Shown here piece after piece: positions 19,901 through 44,353 of a stretch of 64,000 bases of DNA. Below the pieces are notes generated by a model that made no database searches, was not told the DNA's origin, and saw only the letters and a program-made list of their open reading frames with translations. Position 1 is the stretch's first letter. The number at the start of each line of letters is the position of its first letter. Both the position numbers and the translations under genes were made by a program. Origin of the DNA: Ascidiella aspersa (lineage: Eukaryota); assembly GCA_963924565.1 (NCBI GenBank), contig OZ004608.1:26598001-26662000 (forward strand). The letters are read 5' to 3'.

Positions 19901-22900
19901 GCAATCTACGGAAATAAGTTAACGAAAAACCTAATAAAAGTTCTACCTTTGGATCCCATTCCGTCGGCAATGTCTTCCCTGCACTCGCGAAGTTGCGAGA
20001 CCTTGGACCGGAAAAGGTCAGGACACATGCACTTTGCACGGGTGGTTCCCCCAAAAGCAGGGACAATAACACAAAGATGACTACACGAATTACCAGCGCA
20101 ACGGTTTTCAACTGAATAAAAGAAGAAACGAAAATGGACTACAGTCATAACACCGAAATAAGAACAACATCAACGTCGGAAAAAAACACACTTATCAATA
20201 AGACCAAAATAGGACTAATACCTAATAGTCGTAAAACCGTCTAATTTGGAATAGCCTCTAAGTTCTAAATCGGTCGGAATAAGACCTAAATAGTCAGAAT
20301 CAGGTATATACAAGTCCTAAACAAAGCCCACCTTAAATACATGACCAATTCCCCTATAATAATTTTAATCCTTCCTACCCCAACAGTTTCAGGCGTTATT
20401 TTGGCCTTTAGGACCTATTCCGACAGGTTTAGGTTTTTATATATTATCCTGTCGTGGATATTACAGAAAATTTGACTTTATTACGTCGTTGGTCTTAATG
20501 CTATGGTATTATAGATTATTCGGCATTAAATATTGTTGCTTTGAGTCTTATGGCGTGTTTCCAATAAAGTCTGAGACTGAAGGATCGTTTGTTATGTTTA
20601 TCATCTCCATAAGTGGGCAGAATGCCATTGCACTAAAATTTTAAGAGTATACCCTGTATACAGGTCGGTTCTTGGGTTTGCCAAACTTTCTAGGTTAGCT
20701 TAATTAAATATAGCTACATCTGTAAACATTTTGTTGTACAAGTATGTGCGTTTGTAGCAACTTACAAGCAAGGTTTGCGTGTAGGTTGTTGAGGATTGAA
20801 ATTCCAGTCGGTCTTTGTAACCCGCTCACCACACCCCGAACGCCATTGCCGTTGGTTTTGTTGCAGGTCATGATGTGTTTACCAAGCCAGTCCGTGTAGT
20901 ACACTAAAAGGTCATGAAAGCACTAAATCAGGCAAATCGCTAGTTTTGAAAATACACCATGATTTTTTTTAATTTTGCAGAAATTTGTAGATGTCAATTC
21001 GAATTGGATACCATGAGGTACCCGATGATATCCTGCCGACCAGACACCGAAATAATGAGGTATTTCAGTCATTATTTGTGATCTAATCAAGCCAAGCGTT
21101 TTTTACCCTAAAAGTATGCTCAATAAAATGCGTTTTCTTACTTTAAAACTTAAAAAAATAAAAGTGAAAGATATAGCCAATATGTCAATATTGAGCGTAC
21201 AAAAGAGGTAAACGAACTTACATCGGTCGTGGTAAACAGCCACACCATACGGATGTGGAGCGAATTTTTGCGATTGCACAAGAACGCGCGGATCGGATCC
21301 GTCGAAGTTGCACGAAGTGATCGAATCCAGCTTGGCGTCCACCCAAATCATACGCTCGTCTTCAAAATCTTTCAGAACAAAGAAAAAAGTAATCGAGCAA
21401 ACGAACAACAATAAAGTTTATCGGTTCAGTTTTGTAGAACATACAGGTTTCGAAAAATATTTGTCAATTCTATACAAATTTGTCCCAGCAGACTAAAAAA
21501 TTACGAAATTCTCTTATCCAATATAACAAGATTTTTGCTTTTAGAACCTTTTTAAAACATATTAGGAAACAAAAACGACAGCCAGTTGAATTTTCCATAA
21601 AGGCTATATTCGTTTAGAATTTGCAACTTTTGCTAACAATGCAAACAATTGCAAAGCCATAAAAAATTAATTGAACCTTAAACAACTTTAGGAGTAGAAT
21701 AAATTCGGCAAAATATATAGTAATGTCCAATAAAAGAGATATTGTTTGTTTTTGGAAAGAATTGTTTGTTTTTTTGGTTAAAATATTTCTAAAAAAACTT
21801 TCAACTCAATGTTTGCCGATGCGCCGTACCGCTGAAAATGTGGTTCTTTTCAATAGAAATATGTTCATTTTTCACCAGGCCATTTCATCATCCGCTTGAA
21901 TGTATTAGTCTCTTTAAAAGTAAGTTGCATATTTGTCTATACTAGACCCGACGATAACTTTAGGTTGTTATAAGATTTCTTGTTTTAGACGACGCGTCAT
22001 CTCTAAAACATTTCTTGCGTTTCGGTAAGCAAATGATTCATTGTTTCGATAAGAATATTATTCTACTTTTTCCCCTGATGACTCAAATTCGTAATCATTT
22101 ACCGGGTACCACATTGGAAGTAACTATACTGTTATTAAAACCAGTTGGCCTAAACTGGATTGTAGTACAAGCAAATTATTTTTTTTGAATAATTTTAATG
22201 TGTAAACAACTTTTTACAACAATTATAGTTGCTAAAAGTGGTAGAAAAAGTGGTACACCTAATGGCAGGTTGGCAGCAGAGGTTTATATAAATTACCTAA
22301 AACTAATCCATTAGGCCATCGAATGTTCACTATCACAATGGTGGTACAGGAACTCCCGTCCATCCAACAACGTTCTATCTTCGGCTCACTTCCCCAATCG
22401 GAAACGAATATCCATCTGGTTAATACAAAATGCTCCGATAAATCTGTTTTCGAAAACGACCTTAGAGTTTATCAATAAATAAACGCAACATAGTTAAAGG
22501 GGAACAAACTGCTGTTTAAAAACAAAAAAACGTTTGTTAACAATTGTGATAAACTTCACGACTTAGAGATCATACGATTCTATTGTTTTCCAGGTTGAAA
22601 CAAAAATACATTTTTGACGCAAGTAGACCATACTAAAGCATAACAGGATTGAACGAGAAGGCATGGTTGAGGCCAAACCGTTTCACTCCTACGGAATGTA
22701 TTTCAAGCAAAACGAAAAGAACAACGTTTACGCCTAAAAAGCGCGTTTACCCGCTTTACCAGCAGCTGAAAGTCAAAGCCTAAAAAATCCAGTATCACTT
22801 ACCCTTCACCGGGATGAGTAGCAATCGCTCGCGGTTTATAAGTTGCGTTCCGAGCAAAAACCGTAGTAACGAAAGTCTCATCGCGAGCCACACTCAGCTT

Positions 22901-32850: not shown

Positions 32851-33467
32851 ATGAAAGACACACACAAACATATGTGTTTAATAACATCTGTGATCTAGCC
32901 CCTCGGAAGTTGCTTTATGACCAACGATTACGGCTTCCGTATCAATAGTACACCGAAAAGCCATCGCAGACTCGCCGAATCTGTCGATGTATGATGCAAG
33001 CAGAGCAAGCCAGAAAAACAACTGGCCTGCAGTGAGGTTCGAACTCACGACCTCCGGTCAAGCTGGGACCGTCGCTCTACCAACTGAGCTTTGCAGGCTC
33101 AGAGAGGAGCGAGTCGAGAAACAACCATGCGCCAATACTTGCACATTTTGTTAGTACAAGCAACTTCACACTGGGGGATCATCAGTCCGTATCAATTAAT
33201 GAAAGACACACACAAACATATGTGTTTAATAACATCTGTGATCTAGCCCCTCGGAAGTTGCTTTATGACCAACGATTACGGCTTCCGTATCAACAGTACA
33301 CCGAAAAGCCATCGCAGACTCGCCGAATCTGTCGATCTATGATGCAAGCAGAGCAAGCCAGAAAAACAACTGGCCTGCAGTGAGGTTCGAACTCACGACC
33401 TCCGGTCAAGCCGGGAGCGTCGCTCTACCAACTGAGCTATGCAGGCTCAGAGAGGAGCGAGTCGAGA
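32851..33467 (-). mobile_element. tRNA-headed SINE-like element present as a tandem 1.8-mer (348-bp period) with one 12-bp TSD
   Basis: About 270-bp direct repeats at 32851-33121 and 33199-33469 with about 5 differences. Each contains a tRNA-like head (33098-33025; 33446-33373) with A box AGCTCAGTTGG, B box GAGTTCGAACC and a 7-bp GCCTGCA/TGCAGGC stem. Flanked by AATTATCAAACA at 32839-32850 and 33468-33479. Confidence 0.8.
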
Positions 33468-34554: not shown

Positions 34555-37500
34555 TCATTTACGGAAACTTATATTTCCCGCTCTGATATTCACACCGACA
34601 GCGCTGCTCCTGCAATAAGGTTTGTTCTGAAATACGCCGACGAGAGCCTTTTCGAATCCGGACCTGTCGGGTACTTTTTCGTCCTCAATGGCTTCGTTTT
34701 CTCTTGGAAAATCCTGTATAGTCTCACTGAAGGATCCAGTCGTCATGTAACTACAGTTGCCCACATCGAAAGTCGGCAACTAAGTAAAGAAAGTAAACTT
34801 ATGCACTTATTAAGGATATAACGCTGTGACTATATTTGACACCAATGTTATGCCAAAGTAATTATGAAAGACGGAGGCCCATTCAATTGGCCACAGCTAA
34901 TAGGGTAACGTACCTCATCTTGTGTTGGTAGTTGAAGGACTGGAATGACTCGTGTGGAATTTGCTAAAGGAGCAGACGAAAATGCAAACCGCTTTGCACT
35001 GGTCGCCATACTGGGTAGCGGTAGACGCTTTCGTTCTGTAAATGAATTAATTATTATGTGATAAGTAATGTAATAAAAGTGATCTTTTAGTGGTCTTCGA
35101 ATATAGCCTACTAATAATGATGTCGCATTTAGCAAATAATTTTATATTTTGAGTAAAAGTAAGTTGAAACACTTTTGAAAGTAAGGATCTCCCGCGGACA
35201 ATAAAATGTAAAAGAAAGATTCTTGTCTTCGTATCCAAAGATCTTAAGACTGTTTATTTATTAAAACAGATAAAACATAAAATCATTTCTTAAAATCTTA
35301 CAGAAATATATATATTACGCCTATAAGGCATCATCAGTTTCTTATTTCGAATGAATCATCATTTCGAATTTTTTTTCAATGTATTCTCCTCCTTTAGTAG
35401 GATTATTTTTATAGGTATAGCCTATAAGCGGAAGGCAACGTATGTTACATTCAAACGAAAGATCACATACGATAACAGTTAATACAAACCAAGTAAAATA
35501 TTAAAGCTTACTTTTTTCCTCTTGTTTATCTTCGTCTCTCCATAACGACAACAAATTGCTTGTCGACTTCGAACGCCTTCGCAGTTTGCGCTCTTTGAAG
35601 TTTGCCGCGGCAGAACGCTTGGCGATTTCGAGCGAATCGGTGGTTTTGGGAGCCACTGTTAAGTTTTCAAAATATACGTTGTTCAAAAAACGTTTGTTCA
35701 TTACAAATCAGCTTTGCGAAAACACCGCCGAACAACTTTACCTTGCTTGCCAGCTTTCGCTTTTCCTCTAGTGGGCGCTGTGGCGTACTTGCCCACCACC
35801 GACTTGATAGGCGACGACCTCATTTGACCCCACGAAGTCAGGTAGACGCCTGAATCCGACAGAACAGAACTGTCGGCTTTCTTGCCGCTGGGCTTTGCGT
35901 TTTTCGCCGATCCACCGGACAGCTTCTTTTTGTTTGGATTGCTGCAGCCGTAGCGCATCTCGGTCTCGATGTTCTTCTTTATCTTCTGCTGTCGCTTCTC
36001 CTGCAGAACTTCCTTCAACTCTCCTGTCTTTTTCCAGCTGTTTTCGAAGTAGTCGGCCAGGCTTTGCCCATTCACGAAGAAGTCCGCCTCTAAAATGTGT
36101 AGAAATGTCCAGATTCTAACTTAGTAACGATTTATTTCCCGTAAGTGTTTTAAAGCATAGACTTTAAACCACATGTCATTTGAATGGGCAAAGTCTGGCG
36201 GACTGCTTCATGTCATTTTTTTCTAAAGAAATATTTCGCAGCAAACAAAATTTAAGATCGGTGCGGAAACAAACGAAAATGTTTGTAGTATGTTGTTTTG
36301 GAAAAAACAATTAGATTCATGTAATGATATTTAAGTAAAAACCTAAACAACAGTGGCTCGAATTAGGCATGTCCGATAATATTGGATCGGATCCGATGCC
36401 CGATTCCAAGTGATATTATCGGCACTCGACCGACTAAGGCAGCGTTTCTCAACCGGTGCGCCATGGAAGACTGCCAGGTGCGCCGCGAGCAAAATGAAAA
36501 AATAATGTAGGTCCTATTATGTAAAACATATATTTTTCACTTTTCTATTAAGCTTGACTCATTGATTCCACAAGCCTTTAAAGAAGAAAACGCAATGATA
36601 TAATAACGCACAAATTGCGAATGGTACTATAATAACGCCAAAATCGCGGTGATAACCACGACAGAATAAGATCTAAAATAGTCTAGATAAGACCTAAACA
36701 TGTCAAAATAAGTCAAAAATTAATCGAATAAGACTTATATGGACAAAATAACGACATTTAGTCTTAAAAGCTGGATTCCCTTTAAAGATATGCAACTATA
36801 AAACGTATATAATAAAAAAATTGCAGGCAATTTAAGAGAAATACCGGTACACCTTAAAAATTTCGCGTTTGCTTCGCTCACAAGGTGCGCCAACACGTTT
36901 TCATATGTCTCTAGGTGCGCCCTCAAGTAAAAAAAGGTTGAGAAACACTGGACTAAGGTATAATGGTGATACCAAATTCACATAATAATTTCAGATCCAA
37001 CGCTGAAATTATGTCTTGAAAAGTAAATTAAAAAACAGGTTAGTAACTAGTTACTAGAGGTAATCAAACTTTTTGACGTAAAATGAAATTTAGCCTTATA
37101 ACCTAAAAAAATGTGTTTCAATTTGTCTGTGTTGCCTGATTGACCTTATTTCTGATGCCCTTTGACATCGGATCGGACCGCAAAAAAATTGTTTAAAATA
37201 TCAGGTTTCGGTAATAAAAAAAATATTGGGTATCCCTATAGTTGGAACGATCATACCATGTTGTGGATTAGTCTTCACCCAAAGCGTCGCCGCATCGAAA
37301 ACAGCTTTCTGCAACTTAGGGAGTTGCTGGCGAATCTTTTTGCGCTCCTTTTCTTCGGCCAGCAAAGTGCCACCTTTATAAACGCAGGCTATTATGTGCG
37401 AATTGCTACGAAAATATATTGCTGTGATCTTATAAGCGAAATGCCATAAAATTGCTCCGTTTTGCAACTTGTATCATCACGTATTTTGATAGACACTGTG

Positions 37501-40500
37501 TTTTTACGTCATGAAGTTTCCCAATGTTGGATGTGTCATCAATGTCATGACGTTGCATTCAAATATTTTTTTACAGATTAGACTGGGAGTCGGCAACCTT
37601 TTCCTATTCGTAGGCCTACCAAAAAGTTCTCTCGGCGGTCCGTAATACATTTCCACTAATAATTTCGTTATAAAAACGTTTGCCGTTTAGGTATTCTAAT
37701 ATAAAAACTCTGAATTACAAAAGGATATAAGCTTTTCAACCAACTCAAAATAATAGTAATAGTTTAGAAGTCATGGAAAGCGCAAAGAGAGACAAAATTG
37801 TTTGTTTTGACTCATTGATTACATGAAAACGATACTGTTTATACTCACGCTGTTATATGTTTGTCATAAAATACGGGATACATCCGGGGAAAAATTATAA
37901 AGATTAAGTTGGACAAAGTTTCATTCTAAGAGAGTTTCATGTTTCTGGTAATTTCTAGCGAAAGTAACTTTTAAATTTACATTTGGCGGACCGGATCAAG
38001 TCGGCGGGCCAGGCTGCCGATGCCTTTATTAGACTCTTAATACAGGTTAAAATTTCCTTAAAAACGCTGGCTGTTAAAGTTTAAAATGGAACTCACAAGA
38101 AATATCCCATTTACTTTAACTAAAGGTCATACCTCTGTTTTTCAAGCGATTCGGGTCTTGGTGTTTTATGTCGAGTTCTAAAATACGGTCGTGAGACTTC
38201 TTCCAAATCTCTAGTTTGTTTAATACAGGCTTCCGCTGGTCAAGCTCATCGTTGACATGGTCTATGTCCTTCTCCAATTTATCCAGAACTGCTTCAAGCT
38301 CTATTTCATTCTCCTACATTTTATAAGAAGTAGTTTTTTGACACGGTTATCTGTTAACAGGTTATCGATAATTAAAAGGACATGTCTTAGAGTGAATTTT
38401 CAAAAGCGTAGAAACGATATTGCAATACCTAGAATCATAATGTGTCATGACTATTCAGATTGCAGAGCAACACCATATTATAAATTAGAAAACTGGCTCG
38501 CAAAGCTGGACTTAAATGAAGTTGTATATCTGGCTTTAAACAAAACGTCGTCTATAGCAATCCCTAAAGATGTTGTCCATTTTACTCAACTATTTGGCGT
38601 GTTATTCATCCGCAAATATTTATTAAATCTTAACAAAGCTACACGCAAAGCAACCTAAGTTTAGCGTTCTGCGCAAATTACCAGTTCAACATACCTTGTG
38701 TTTGATTGCAGCAATAAATTCATCCTCAATGGTTGGATTTAGATCGACCAGCATCGCCTCAGTTCGAAGGTTTTGTAACTTTCTGTTCGCATTGTTAATC
38801 AGCGTTTCCATGTTGCTTTGACGCAGGCCTATCAGGCGAGTCTTCTCCGCTGAAAGAGCTTCACTCACCTGGCTTGTAACCTGTGAGTGTGTTTTACTAT
38901 TGACAGAACACGCAGCAGACAGAAATGCCAACGCTTTAGGCCTAACCGATAATTATTGACTCTAATATGTTGTAGTTAAAACAAATTATGCGAAATTTTA
39001 TAAACCGAGAAAAATCAGGAACCAGAAAAAAATAGAGCAACAAATCTATAAACCGGATCAAATTTTAATATAATGATGTTCTTCCGGAGCGATATATCCT
39101 GAGACGATGTTTTCAAAACAATTCAAACATAATCTTCGAGTTCGTAGATTTTTAAATGCTAAATCCAAACATTTGAATAAAGACATCTAAAAAAACTTTG
39201 CTTTAAAAGTACTAAAATACCCCACCTCCTCCGTGGGCGAGAAATATTTTCGCTTAAACTTATCCGCGTAGTCAAGGGTGACACCCAGTTTCAGCCAGAG
39301 CCGGGAAATTTCGCTCCTCAATCGTTTAGCCACTGAGGCCCGGTGTAGGGACTCGACCGAATCTGAGAAGTTCTGCAGAGACTCGATGTTGGCATTTGAA
39401 ACGACCGACGATGGACTGTTCAATAGTGACGTCACCGCCAGGTTTACCACCGGTAAATCGTATTCCTCCAGTTTCGCCAATACCTCGTTTCGAACCTTGG
39501 TGAAGGTGGTCGTTCTGAAATTAAAATGTTGCGCATGCACTTGGTGTCACTATCTTCACTTAACATTGTATTGGGACTGTTTCAAGATATCTATTAAGGA
39601 TGTTAATATATTAACAACAGTGTTGTAATGACATAAGTCAATAACTTGAATTAAGTGCACTTAAGTCACTGTTTATAAATGACTTGGCGAAGCCAATTAT
39701 TTTTCAAATGACTTGATTGGGACTTCATTCATTTCAAAATGACTTGTTTTCCCACACTGATTAACAAAGGTCCGTACACGGTTTAAAAGAAAAGTGAATC
39801 CACATGTGGTAAGATTTGTGCTATAGGTCAATGAAAAAATCGTTAGCTCTGTTGAAGGACATATCTGGTGCTGACATTCGCTCGATCCGGTAAAAATTTA
39901 GGCCAGACCAACGACAGCTGTGCCAGCTGTTACCTTCTGTCATATTCCTTGGTCAAATCCTCGACTCGTCGCTTCCAGACTTGGATCTTGGCCAGCGACA
40001 AATCTTGGTCAGCGCTGTCACAATCGACTCCATCATCCAAAAGCGAGGGCTCGCCCAACCTTTTGCAGAGTAAGACCTCTTCCGACGCCAATTTATTTAA
40101 CGTGCGTCGACGCTCGGTAATCAGCTCTTTTAATTTGACAACTTCCTTTCTGGCCTTACGCTCCTGAAGAATATATAATACAAAATAAAATTAGGGGTTC
40201 TCTAATTACATTTAGGTCGCGTTTCATTTTTTTCCTAGAGTTTAAAATACTTCGGAAAAGCTAATCTTTTTAAACCTTGTTTTGGTTTAAGAAGCCGGAC
40301 CGTCTGGACTTTGAATGATTTGAGTTTGGCAACGAGCATTATCCCCTTAAGCTTAATAGACCTTTATAATTTTGTATAGGCCTATGTGTTTTTGGCAGTA
40401 TAAGCGTTTTACGTTGTTGCTTTGACGAGGTGAATGCTCATTAATGTATCTGCTTCGAGTTAATAATAGTTTTGCTTGATAATCTTAAAAAACATAAACT

Positions 40501-42358
40501 TTTCACAAATTTAATCTTTTTGCTTGTTTGGTCGCAGAAATCGTCATTTGGTTTCGATTCGTACACTAATACTTTTTCCATAAATTGTTTTCGTATTAAT
40601 ATTATGACGACAAAAAATATTATTTAATCAAGTATAAAGGGTTTTTTCTGACACATGTGTTCAGCGCCGACGTTTCGATTGCCTTTACGGGTAATCTTCT
40701 TCAGGGCAATAAACACGGGTATATACACAGTGAGTCAAAAGAAAAAAAAACAAGAAACAAAAAACAAGGTGGCAAAACGAGGCGAAAAAGGGAAACAAGG
40801 CAAGAATAACGGGAGAACGCAAAAACCGTTTGCGGCCTTTTAATTATTTAATATATGTTTCTAATTGGGATGTCCGAAAATGTGGATCCGGTGCCGATAC
40901 CGGATGCCAGAGGTAGTGCCGGTATTTGCCCTAAACTTATGTAGTATCGCTGATAACAAAATGATATCGGAAATTTAGTCATAGATTACGAATTGCCGCA
41001 GTAATTTCTACTACAAAAGCAATTTTGTCAAAAAATAGTATGTTACCCAATCAAGGTATACGCAAGCAAATTTTGCCCTGGTAACCCGGTAAAGACGCCT
41101 TTAAATGTTTTAATTTGATTTATGTTGCTTGTTTCAACATAGTAATGCAATAGCTTGGTATCGGATCGTTTCGCAATACTTTTTGTTCACAATATCGTGT
41201 ATTGGTATCGCAAAAAAATGTTAAGTATCCGACATCCATAAAACACGAACCACAGTCCATTTGTAACGCTTCATACCTTTAAGCACAGGCTTCCCGGCTG
41301 CATTTCGACTGCACTGGAGCAACTGCTCACTTCCAGCGTTTTGTCGTGCGTCGGGTCTTCCGTGGTTCCCAGTTGCTCTTTCATGGACTGGATTTCACTG
41401 GAGAATCTTGCGAGGTTGTCTTGCACCTTCGTTTTGAGGCTTTCCTCTTCCTCCACCATATTTAGCATGAGATCCTCAAGGAGCGCGTGGACTCTTGAGC
41501 CCCTCTCCATTACCTGGGACAGGGGACGATTTAAAATAAACTGATGCTACGAATAGAACAAGAGCTATAGAGTTGCAAACAAGATAATGTTGTTTTGACC
41601 TTTGCGACATAAATTGTATAGGCAGTAAATGTTTAAACATAAAAATAAATATTTCATATAACAATACATTGTCCAGACTTTACGCAACACATTCTAATCG
41701 GAAAATGTAGAATACGTTTATTTATTTTTAAAACATAACCACTTGCAAACAGCACCACTTTATACGGTAAAACTATTAAATTGCATTGTACTTTGATATA
41801 AATATTTGTACGTTATAATATTAGACGTTTTTTTAATATGAACAATTTTGCTTTGTGATGGGCAAACAATTTCTACCGTTGGCAAATTAACTTACTTATA
41901 TTCTGATTCAAAAATTTATGGCATTTGTTAAGCACGCCAAGTAAAATCATTAGCGAAACTATGTTTATTACACACAAAAATTAAATTATCTTTAAGTGAA
42001 AGTCACAATTTTGGCCCTACTGCGTTTAATGTGTGAACCAATAACCAAGCGTCAATAAATTGGCCGTGAATCGTTAGGGAGCGCATAAACATATTAATTT
42101 TAACAATGAATTTAACTATATCGTTTACAATATAACTTTCGTTGCGTTGTCCCTTAAAAAATCCCTATAAAGGCGTTCACAAAAACCGCAACAGTGAAAC
42201 ATGTTTACGGTTGCGCAAAACATTGAACAAACCTGATCGTCGGAAAGTCCAAGGAATTCCCATATCTCGTTAAGCCGCAGCAAACGGGCGCTCACCAAAT
42301 CTTGAATTTCGGCGATAAACCAATCAGGTTTAAGTGACATAGTACTGTAATTGGACAT
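34555..42358 (-). CDS. PRC1: Protein regulator of cytokinesis 1 (MAP65/Ase1 family), 11 coding exons, about 734 aa
   Basis: Exons 42358-42233, 41513-41277, 40163-39934, 39514-39226, 38880-38695, 38313-38133, 37373-37257, 36089-35742, 35655-35512, 35035-34914, 34779-34555 (2205 nt, in frame). Family signature DPNRLKNRGGTLLAEEKERKKIRQQLPKL, then FFVNGQSLADY; N-terminal LNEIWEFLG; basic Ser-rich tail. Confidence 0.9.
36440..36950. mobile_element. hAT-type MITE nested in an older ATCGG/CCGAT-rich repeat (about 36370-37180)
   Basis: TIRs CAGCGTTTCTCAACC / GGTTGAGAAACACTG; TSD GACTAAGG. Confidence 0.88.
37584..38026. mobile_element. Degenerate hAT-type MITE
   Basis: Ends TGGGAGTCGGCAACC / GGCTGCCGATGCCTT; near-perfect TSD GATTAGAC / TATTAGAC. 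Confidence 0.6.
40657..40716 (-). ncRNA. Minimal type I hammerhead ribozyme (Penelope-like-element type) in PRC1 intron 2
   Basis: Minus strand: GUGUUUA-U-UGCC CUGAAGA A GAUUACC-CGUAAA-GGCAAUC GAAA C GUC GGCG-C-UGAACAC. Core CUGANGA (40704-40698), GAAA (40676-40673) and GUC (40671-40669) are intact; stem I is 4+7 bp, stem II 6 of 7 bp, and stem III is reduced to palindromic ACGU. Confidence 0.8.
40868..41237. repeat. Dispersed ATCGG/CCGAT-rich MITE-like family (related copies at about 18297-18700, 25940-26060, 36370-37180)
   Basis: Ends GGGATGTCCGA / TCCGACATCC; shared GGATCCG..CCGATACC and GTATCGG motifs between copies. Confidence 0.6.
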
Positions 42359-44353
42359 GAACGCTAACCAACTGCTGATCGTTTTTAGTCGAACTAGTGG
42401 AATAAAATTATCGCTCTAACTATGTCTCTTTCCAAAATGCTGTTAAAAATGTTTTTGTGTGTTGATCCGGTGACTGAAAAAATGTCTTATCTTGGTGTAA
42501 CATAAAAAGGCAAAGGTGTAAGATTTAATATGATCGCCACATGTTTTCCTGCCTATTGCAAGTGTTGATTACGTTGGAGCAGTTACAGACACTTTGCGTT
42601 CGCACCTGATCAAAGTGGGCCGTGGCCGAAGGATCTAACGATCAGAACACCTGATCAAAGAAAGTACATTGACAGTTTCTCGTTCTCGCCCTTTAGGGGC
42701 AAACATCGAGCCCTTCGGGCATACTTACAACGGCCTATGCTTCTAATCTATCTTCTTCTGATTTTCTCAACCAAAAGTGTTCTTGCAATGGCTTTTAAAG
42801 TAAAGTGCCGGTCAAATCGCGGTGTCAATCTGTCTTGCAATCATTCTTGTAACTCTCGTGTTGGTTGCTGAGTATGAACTATACATGGCATATATGCATT
42901 TAGTCTACTTTGTTGCATGTTTCTATTTTACGGGTTTCATTTGGCTTTATTATATCTGTCTATATATACAAAAGTTGTTATTGTCGTTCATTTAGAAACT
43001 GATTATGAACGAAATTTCCTTAATGCTCACGAATCTGGCAAAAAATTAAAAATATATATATCTTTCAAGGTTCATTGACTGAGTAATACAAGCTGTACAC
43101 GTCAATGCCTGTTCTGAGTGTAAGACATCTTTTTTACTTAAAACATATACAGTAGAACAATCTAGCCCAATAATTTAAATCCATTACACAACACCTGCTT
43201 ATATCCACTTTATTCAGTTATTTAAAGGCAGCGAGCGTTCGCGCATTCCTTCGAAGAGAACGCGAAACGCGATTTTGCAGCAGTTCCAACACTTACCGCG
43301 AACAATGCTATAAAATATTTTCGCTTTACAAAAAAGGTAAAAAAATATTCACACGTAAACAAACGACAACAGAAACTGTTAATAGAGGTGCGATAAATTG
43401 AAAGCAAAAACAACGCAAAAGCGATAAAATAAGACGGCCTGACGAAAAAAAAATGTTAGAAACTACATCACATAAAGGCGCTTTTAGCAAAGTCGAAAAT
43501 AGTGAGGAGCGTCACTGTCAACCAGATACAATCGGTAAACTTTTCAAGCAATTACCCGAGAGCGGAGATTGAACAGGCGTGCGCATTAGGATCTGTGTTG
43601 ATGCATTACGGCTAAAAGGCGGCTCCAAATTGACGGGCAAATTGGACCAAAAATGATAACGCAATGCCATAAGAACATTGGCAAACTTCGCAGGCAATTA
43701 ATTCTTTCGAGACGGTAACTCGAACAGCCATACGCATTGGGAGGTTAAATTGGCATTCTGCATTTCAAGCAACTTTCGTAAACTTTACAAATATTTATTC
43801 AAACAAACAGAACCGTGGCGTTTCTTTCACTGTTGTTGGATGTTGGTTCCAAACTTTGGGCAAAGATGAAATAACTTCAGGGCGTACGTTTCAAGACAAC
43901 GGCGGTGCGATAAACTTTACACAAGGCAACCCGGCCGCGTTTGAAGAGCTCGCGGCGCGCCACAAAGAAAGCGGCACGACGGTTTTGCGGGCAATTACCC
44001 AAAACGGGATTACCGCTGCCAAAAGTCGGCAGTCGCGCGTTTCAGCCTGGAGCCGGCTGGGTGATGGAGACAGGCGCTTCGTTCTGTACACATCGCCGAT
44101 AAACGGGCACTGGGGTTAGTTTTATTGACGCGCCTCGTCGAAAAATCATTGCGGGGTGACGCGCGCTCCCCACAGACCGCCGTTGGGCGAGTGGGAGGCC
44201 GCGACCCGTGCGTATCGCATGTCAAAGAGGGTTAAGTCGACCCCTGGCCGCCGTCGAGGTTCAGCCAAGCCAAGCTAAGCAGAATTAGCAGCGGCAGCAG
44301 TAAAGTCCGGCTGCCGGTGCGGCCTAACGCGGCGTCTTGCTGCGGCGGGGCGG

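Follow-up and report, generated by a model that had tools for sequence, protein, structure and literature searches.

A minimal hammerhead ribozyme motif lies in sense orientation within an intron of a PRC1-type gene in the window, the whole 64,000-nucleotide stretch of Ascidiella aspersa DNA that was analysed. The motif belongs to a 214-bp Penelope-like insertion truncated at the 5' end, and it is very probably inert and spliced out uncut with the intron around it. A sequence-only reading had proposed that the hammerhead marks a solo pseudo-LTR (pLTR) remnant of a Penelope-like element, and this is borne out by a target-site duplication (TSD), a dispersed family of copies, relatives linked to RT/GIY-YIG frames and covarying stems. 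Its further suggestion that the ribozyme could cut PRC1 pre-mRNA near the donor sites gains no support, as the motif is a single copy with no cis partner and a predicted misfold.

The motif is a type I hammerhead on the minus strand (40657..40716). Stem I pairs 40716-40705 with 40668-40657 and contains 11 pairs over 12 positions, including two G-U pairs and one U/C mismatch. The core begins with C3 at 40704 and continues through CUGAAGA (40704-40698) to an extra unpaired A at 40697, between A9 and G10.1 and ahead of stem II, so that this segment spans 40697..40704. The extra base was missing from the sequence-only reading and is a trait of the hammerheads described in excerpts of PMC4209133. 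Stem-loop II (40677..40696) forms six pairs over seven positions with one A/C mismatch, which results from a rare U-to-C change at 40681. The remaining core strand (40669..40676) reads GAAA-CGUC; it holds GAAA at 40676-40673, the palindromic ACGU at 40673-40670 that replaces stem III entirely, and C17 at 40669, which places the predicted scissile bond at 40669/40668.

This anatomy agrees with most of what had been claimed for the motif: a full catalytic core (CUGAAGA, GAAA and C17 in type I topology on the minus strand), an interrupted 11-bp stem I, a stem II of six pairs over seven positions, a stem III collapsed to ACGU, and a cut site that, judged from the position of C17, would fall where it had been predicted. 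The description of the ribozyme as intact holds for the core, in which every base is retained, and fails for the mismatched stem II and for the flank. As an isolated 64-mer, the RNA has the hammerhead fold as its minimum free energy structure (-17.5 kcal/mol, z -2.43), and 5 of 200 shuffled sequences are equally good. The proposed Infernal check with Rfam covariance models was run and fails on this genuine motif, with no hammerhead matches at E <= 1 and none at gathering score; we do not count this miss as evidence against the hammerhead. The motif is the only one of its kind on both strands of the window, and consequently no cis dimer is possible.

The insertion (40629..40842, minus strand) is bounded by a perfect 10-bp TSD, with one repeat at the element 3' end (40619..40628, ATTATTTAAT on the plus strand) and the other at the element 5' end (40843..40852). 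Equally good matches occur in 14 of 20,000 random position pairs. The insertion has copies elsewhere in the genome, and its content corresponds to the 3' pLTR, from approximately the ORF stop codon through the common 3' end of the family, without coding sequence. Upstream of the hammerhead on the same strand (40720..40830, minus) are TATATA at 40725-40720, GACTCAC at 40736-40730 and a U-rich tract at 40737-40830 that is 82% pyrimidine. The U-rich tract and TATATA had been noticed before, and because these sequences and GACTCAC are present in other family copies, they belong to the element and not to the host. Only 40 nt separate the predicted cut from the insertion 3' end (40629..40668, minus), and the optional tail that runs into the ORF start in other copies is absent.

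Several changes distinguish this copy from the majority sequence of its subfamily. The largest is a 14-nt deletion before stem I (junction at 40715..40718, minus), with which the two AG dinucleotides upstream of stem I are lost and the stem is lengthened through chance pairing; the others are a change in loop II, the U-to-C substitution at 40681 and several downstream differences. We considered whether the deletion had been selected to remove a cryptic acceptor and rejected this idea, given that other sense copies (L007, L011, L017 and L079) retain their AGs. Contigs of a second sample span both insertion junctions, which indicates that two or more haplotypes carry the insertion and that it is not private to one; no empty-site allele is present among the junctions listed from the sample contigs.

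A genome BLAST search with the insertion yields at least 52 matches (40 of 268 candidates were scored). Identity is 72-81% for the 30 relatives compared; from the closest of these the window copy has diverged by about 22-28%, or roughly a quarter of the element. A tight family pattern has 134 exact matches genome-wide and none for a reversed control, which argues that the motif is not a chance occurrence, and a second pattern for the nearer subfamily has 48 matches. The copies have a common 3' end, variable 5' truncation and, frequently, an inverted partner. A survey of TSDs, noisy for lengths below 9 bp, served solely to place these 3' ends. Of 58 copies, 17 extend past the common 3' end into an ORF start (MPGS..) with the ATG 47-54 nt beyond the cut, an optional tail of the sort described for Penelope elements in excerpts of PMC11167929 and PMC3846280.

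Longer relatives (L041, L042 and L045) have an open frame in which RT motifs precede GIY-YIG, and the stop codon of this frame adjoins the sequence that matches the insertion. This is the arrangement that the sequence-only reading had recommended seeking by BLAST; in L041 the last position of the open frame is 2292, and similarity to the window element sets in at 2291. Pfam recognizes RVT_1 (E 4.7e-6) and GIY-YIG (E 0.007) in the frame of the relatives, both with scores below the curated cut-offs and in a clear motif order. The RT-EN linker in the L041 and L042 translations, read by eye, contains no cysteine and hence no Zn-finger-like motif of the kind that is a feature of Neptune and Nematis (PMC8557442). 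A PDB search with the RT frame found nothing. A literature search combining hammerhead, ascidian and Penelope found no paper, and the family of the window element may be unnamed so far.

Minimal hammerheads of their own are also carried by at least two more Penelope-like families, at L053:4364-6808 and L054:2642-4860. In the first, an 815-residue open frame is flanked by a pair of direct pLTRs that both contain a hammerhead, and the two hammerheads are 2.6 kb apart. A separate repeat at 20136-20565 of the window is also present in the flank of L041.

Related genomic copies with covarying stems, which had been set as a test of the hammerhead, were found. Across 34 copies from three families, the stems are paired in 83% of cells, versus 31-48% when the strands are slid, and the covariation score of 0.248 is reached by none of 500 shuffles; these copies are related to each other and were chosen by the core pattern, both of which inflate the measures. 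Eight pairs are changed on both sides, no more than in shuffles (110/500). The G10.1-C11.1 pair is G-C in 32 of the 34 copies. In the most numerous subfamily, a young one with 52 of 103 copies, a U/U mismatch is fixed midway along stem II; spread was thus not prevented by a stem II mismatch on its own.

An intron is possible inside the pLTR of this family, as judged from sequence features. A branch-point-like GACTCAC at L041:2410-2430 is followed by pyrimidines and by an AG that ends at the 5' end of stem I, and 11 of 12 copies with GACTCAC-like sequences retain an AG directly before stem I, after pyrimidines. The intron of Drosophila virilis Penelope likewise ends at the 5' end of stem I (PMC4209133, in excerpt). 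A search for an intronless, spliced pLTR copy gave no matches in the genome.

The insertion could instead be a monomer of a non-LTR retrozyme and no piece of an autonomous Penelope family, an option that the sequence-only reading had kept in view. A length near 200 nt and a single type I hammerhead would suit such a unit, and an origin of retrozymes from pLTRs has been proposed (10.64898/2026.07.22.740005, in excerpt). However, no tandem unit exists at this locus, where the window holds just one hammerhead, and the relatives are attached to RT/GIY-YIG frames and display variable 5' truncation and inverted partners. We find this identity very hard to credit and assign the insertion to the Penelope-like family.

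The predicted folding of the window copy depends on its context. A C facing A on the 3' strand of stem II occurs in 2 of 103 copies. As an isolated 62-mer the window copy nevertheless has the most stable hammerhead-compatible fold among 40 copies (-17.5 versus -16.1 for the majority), a first rank that is due to the outer pairs added by the deletion junction and that holds for a 62-mer sized on this copy; with flanks of 10 or 30 nt the majority is more stable. Simulated decay brings 5% of copies to the same isolated-fold stability. With at least 40 nt of native flank, the probability of the hammerhead fold is near zero in most cases and at most 0.14 over 24 settings, and restoring the family base at 40681 raises it to 0.75-0.77 and 0.98-0.99. 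The competing helix pairs the stem II 3' strand with 40710-40705 of stem I and has a predicted probability of 0.92 once the element end is transcribed. Loss of the hammerhead fold in this context is therefore ascribed by the model to the C at 40681, which would allow the 5' strand of stem I to pair with the 3' strand of stem II.

The predicted gap between this misfold and the hammerhead-compatible fold is just 1.4-3.5 kcal/mol. Local folding forms stem II in 30 of 38 copies, and the window copy is not among them. The same model produces both stems in only 1-5 of 38 copies, which makes folding a blunt test. The window copy as it stands and a version carrying the family base at 40681 make a clean pair for studying how one substitution may silence a fold.

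If a family protein or a hammerhead RNA acting in trans refolded this copy, then the stub could be conditionally active and cut some PRC1 pre-mRNA. The intact core is compatible with this idea, and for the isolated motif a swapped double hammerhead lies roughly 1 kcal/mol above two monomers (-33.9 versus -35.0). Family RNA reads are present on both strands, and the Poseidon hammerhead of anole is known to cleave with the help of protein and only then (PMC11167929, in excerpt). According to the same excerpt, the anole activity needs the first 172 nt of the ORF, whereas the window copy lacks the tail that reaches an ORF start. The misfold predicted with native flank also counts against activation, as does the length of intron that remains before the acceptor, a mere 505 nt. 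No pile-up of read ends appears in the RNA run, a weak point given that the reads come from other copies. On balance we regard conditional cutting as improbable, with a slim chance of being correct, and continue to favor an inert stub.

The host gene is also on the minus strand, as the sequence-only reading had it. Pfam MAP65_ASE1 matches five of the seven exon pieces tested, in profile order, with one match above the curated cut-off, and PRC1 is the name of the animal MAP65/ASE1 member. The assignment of the insertion to intron 2 stands when coding exons alone are counted. The upstream coding exon (41277..41513, minus) contains two candidate in-frame donors, one following 41331 and one following 41277, which are 54 nt apart, match CAG/GTAAGT at 5/9 and 6/9 positions and lie 662 and 608 nt upstream of the predicted cut. 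The downstream coding exon (39934..40163, minus) has its acceptor 505 nt past the cut. No homologues that could decide the donor choice came from a protein search or from PDB, and the best Atlas result (0.89) is a lead only. In one RNA run (about 6/100 of its reads), depth is zero over the PRC1 exons within 39100-42500, and the reads that align in this interval are partial matches from other repeat copies.

Other repeats also occupy the introns of this gene. A further PRC1 intron contains an element of about 511 bp with terminal inverted repeats (36440-36950) and an 8-bp TSD (36432-36439 and 36951-36958), which has the look of a hAT-type MITE. The next PRC1 intron holds a short, very high-copy repeat with internal duplications (39618-39749), over which DNA read depth is about 700 compared with 1-8 in the unique flanks. 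Two tRNA-Ala-like genes are located on the minus strand at 33024-33098 and 33372-33446, with anticodons AGC and GGC. The GGC anticodon of tRNA-Ala is unusual in eukaryotes, so one of these tRNA-Ala-like genes may be a pseudogene or a SINE head.

A domesticated intronic ribozyme, comparable to that of CPEB3, might tune PRC1 output or the choice between the two donors. Sense orientation, a stem I extended by copy-specific changes, two in-frame donor motifs that match consensus at 5/9 and 6/9 positions, and presence of the insertion in the second sample could all be read in this way. Yet helix III is absent and stem II is damaged, the gain in stem I comes from a deletion junction that 5% of random decays equal, and sense copies are common, with L007 and L079 folding better in context than the window copy. 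Domestication is thus scarcely believable. Divergence of about a quarter of the element, the abundance of sense copies and the 608-662 nt that separate the donors from the cut further weaken the view that the ribozyme cuts PRC1 pre-mRNA, and on the folding predictions cleavage by the window hammerhead is unlikely.

The abundance of sense copies is evident from family members beside other host exons. Among single-orientation copies next to Pfam-supported exons, eight are sense and four are antisense (p = 0.39; 108 other loci examined, 12 counted), and sense copies are accordingly common in the genome. This count leaves out the inverted pairs L025, L087, L093 and L128, the implausible weak matches L061 and L102, and L111, whose gene is model-only; L061, L102 and L111 would be antisense if counted, for a total of eight to seven. 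The majority of the sense cases are backed by a single upstream internal exon, so that their intronic position is inferred, and the exon model was trained in part on loci used to check it. A sense bias seen in the first five of five loci was not upheld over 60 further loci. Minimal hammerheads in sense orientation within introns appear to be tolerated in this small sample, which fits inactivity when they are alone. At L136:3510-3709, a family hammerhead in sense orientation is situated less than 100 nt downstream of a Fringe-like exon, nearer to its donor than the window copy.

These observations can be arranged into a conditional history based on published Penelope biology. The element endonuclease would have nicked an AT-rich site, reverse transcription may have begun about 40 nt past the hammerhead and ended near the ORF stop codon, and repair would then have produced the 10-bp duplication. 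The hammerhead of the parent element would lie about 49 nt ahead of the ORF start and would process tandem transcripts, possibly by dimerizing through ACGU:ACGU pairing or with the element protein assisting. In the window copy, the change at 40681 is predicted to divert the 5' strand of stem I to the 3' strand of stem II. Its transcript holds neither a second copy nor a tail, and a misfold is predicted, so the intron is probably excised without being cut.

By itself the window copy matters little, being ordinary mobile DNA and one further decayed Penelope end. A broader idea is that sense Penelope hammerheads in host introns constitute dormant cut sites that are fired in trans when the family is expressed, which we consider a long shot. 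If this were true, a transposon burst would cut short the pre-mRNAs of PRC1 and other host genes, and cell division could slow as a result. Cleavage of host introns activated in trans would be a direct link from transposon expression to loss of host mRNA.

The closest known counterparts are the minimal hammerheads of metazoan Penelope pLTRs (PMC4209133; Cervera and De la Pena 2014). As excerpted, that work describes the same type I architecture with a 7-bp helix II, an unpaired base between A9 and G10.1, a G10.1-C11.1 pair, and palindromic positions 15.2-16.2 with no loop 3, and its motifs are likewise mostly dispersed single copies from truncated elements. The window copy differs in its longer predicted stem I and its private stem II mismatch. 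Single minimal hammerheads show no cleavage and dimers low cleavage in excerpts of PMC4209133 and PMC6765202.

Among EN+ Penelope/Poseidon elements, anole PAc (PMC11167929) and Adineta Pen2a (PMC3846280), both consulted as excerpts, share with this family an RT followed by a C-terminal GIY-YIG, a pLTR of about 218 bp, a TSD of 8-10 bp at AT-rich targets, inverted partners and an optional tail that overlaps the ORF start. Rotifer pLTRs have similar TATA-like and TCACT motifs (PMC3846280, same excerpt). The PAc ORF starts inside the hammerhead, in contrast to the ATG about 49 nt past the cut in the family of the window element.

Two other systems resemble the window copy in part. Non-LTR retrozymes (10.64898/2026.07.22.740005, in excerpt) also carry a type I hammerhead on a short stretch without coding sequence that is related to pLTRs, but they are organized as tandem units that each contain a hammerhead, unlike the single TSD-flanked stub described here. 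The intronic HDV-like ribozyme of CPEB3 (PMC10919898, in excerpt) is similarly a self-cleaving motif in sense orientation in an intron upstream of an exon. It belongs to another ribozyme class, is competent as a monomer and has measured activity, whereas the window copy has no helix III and is predicted to misfold.
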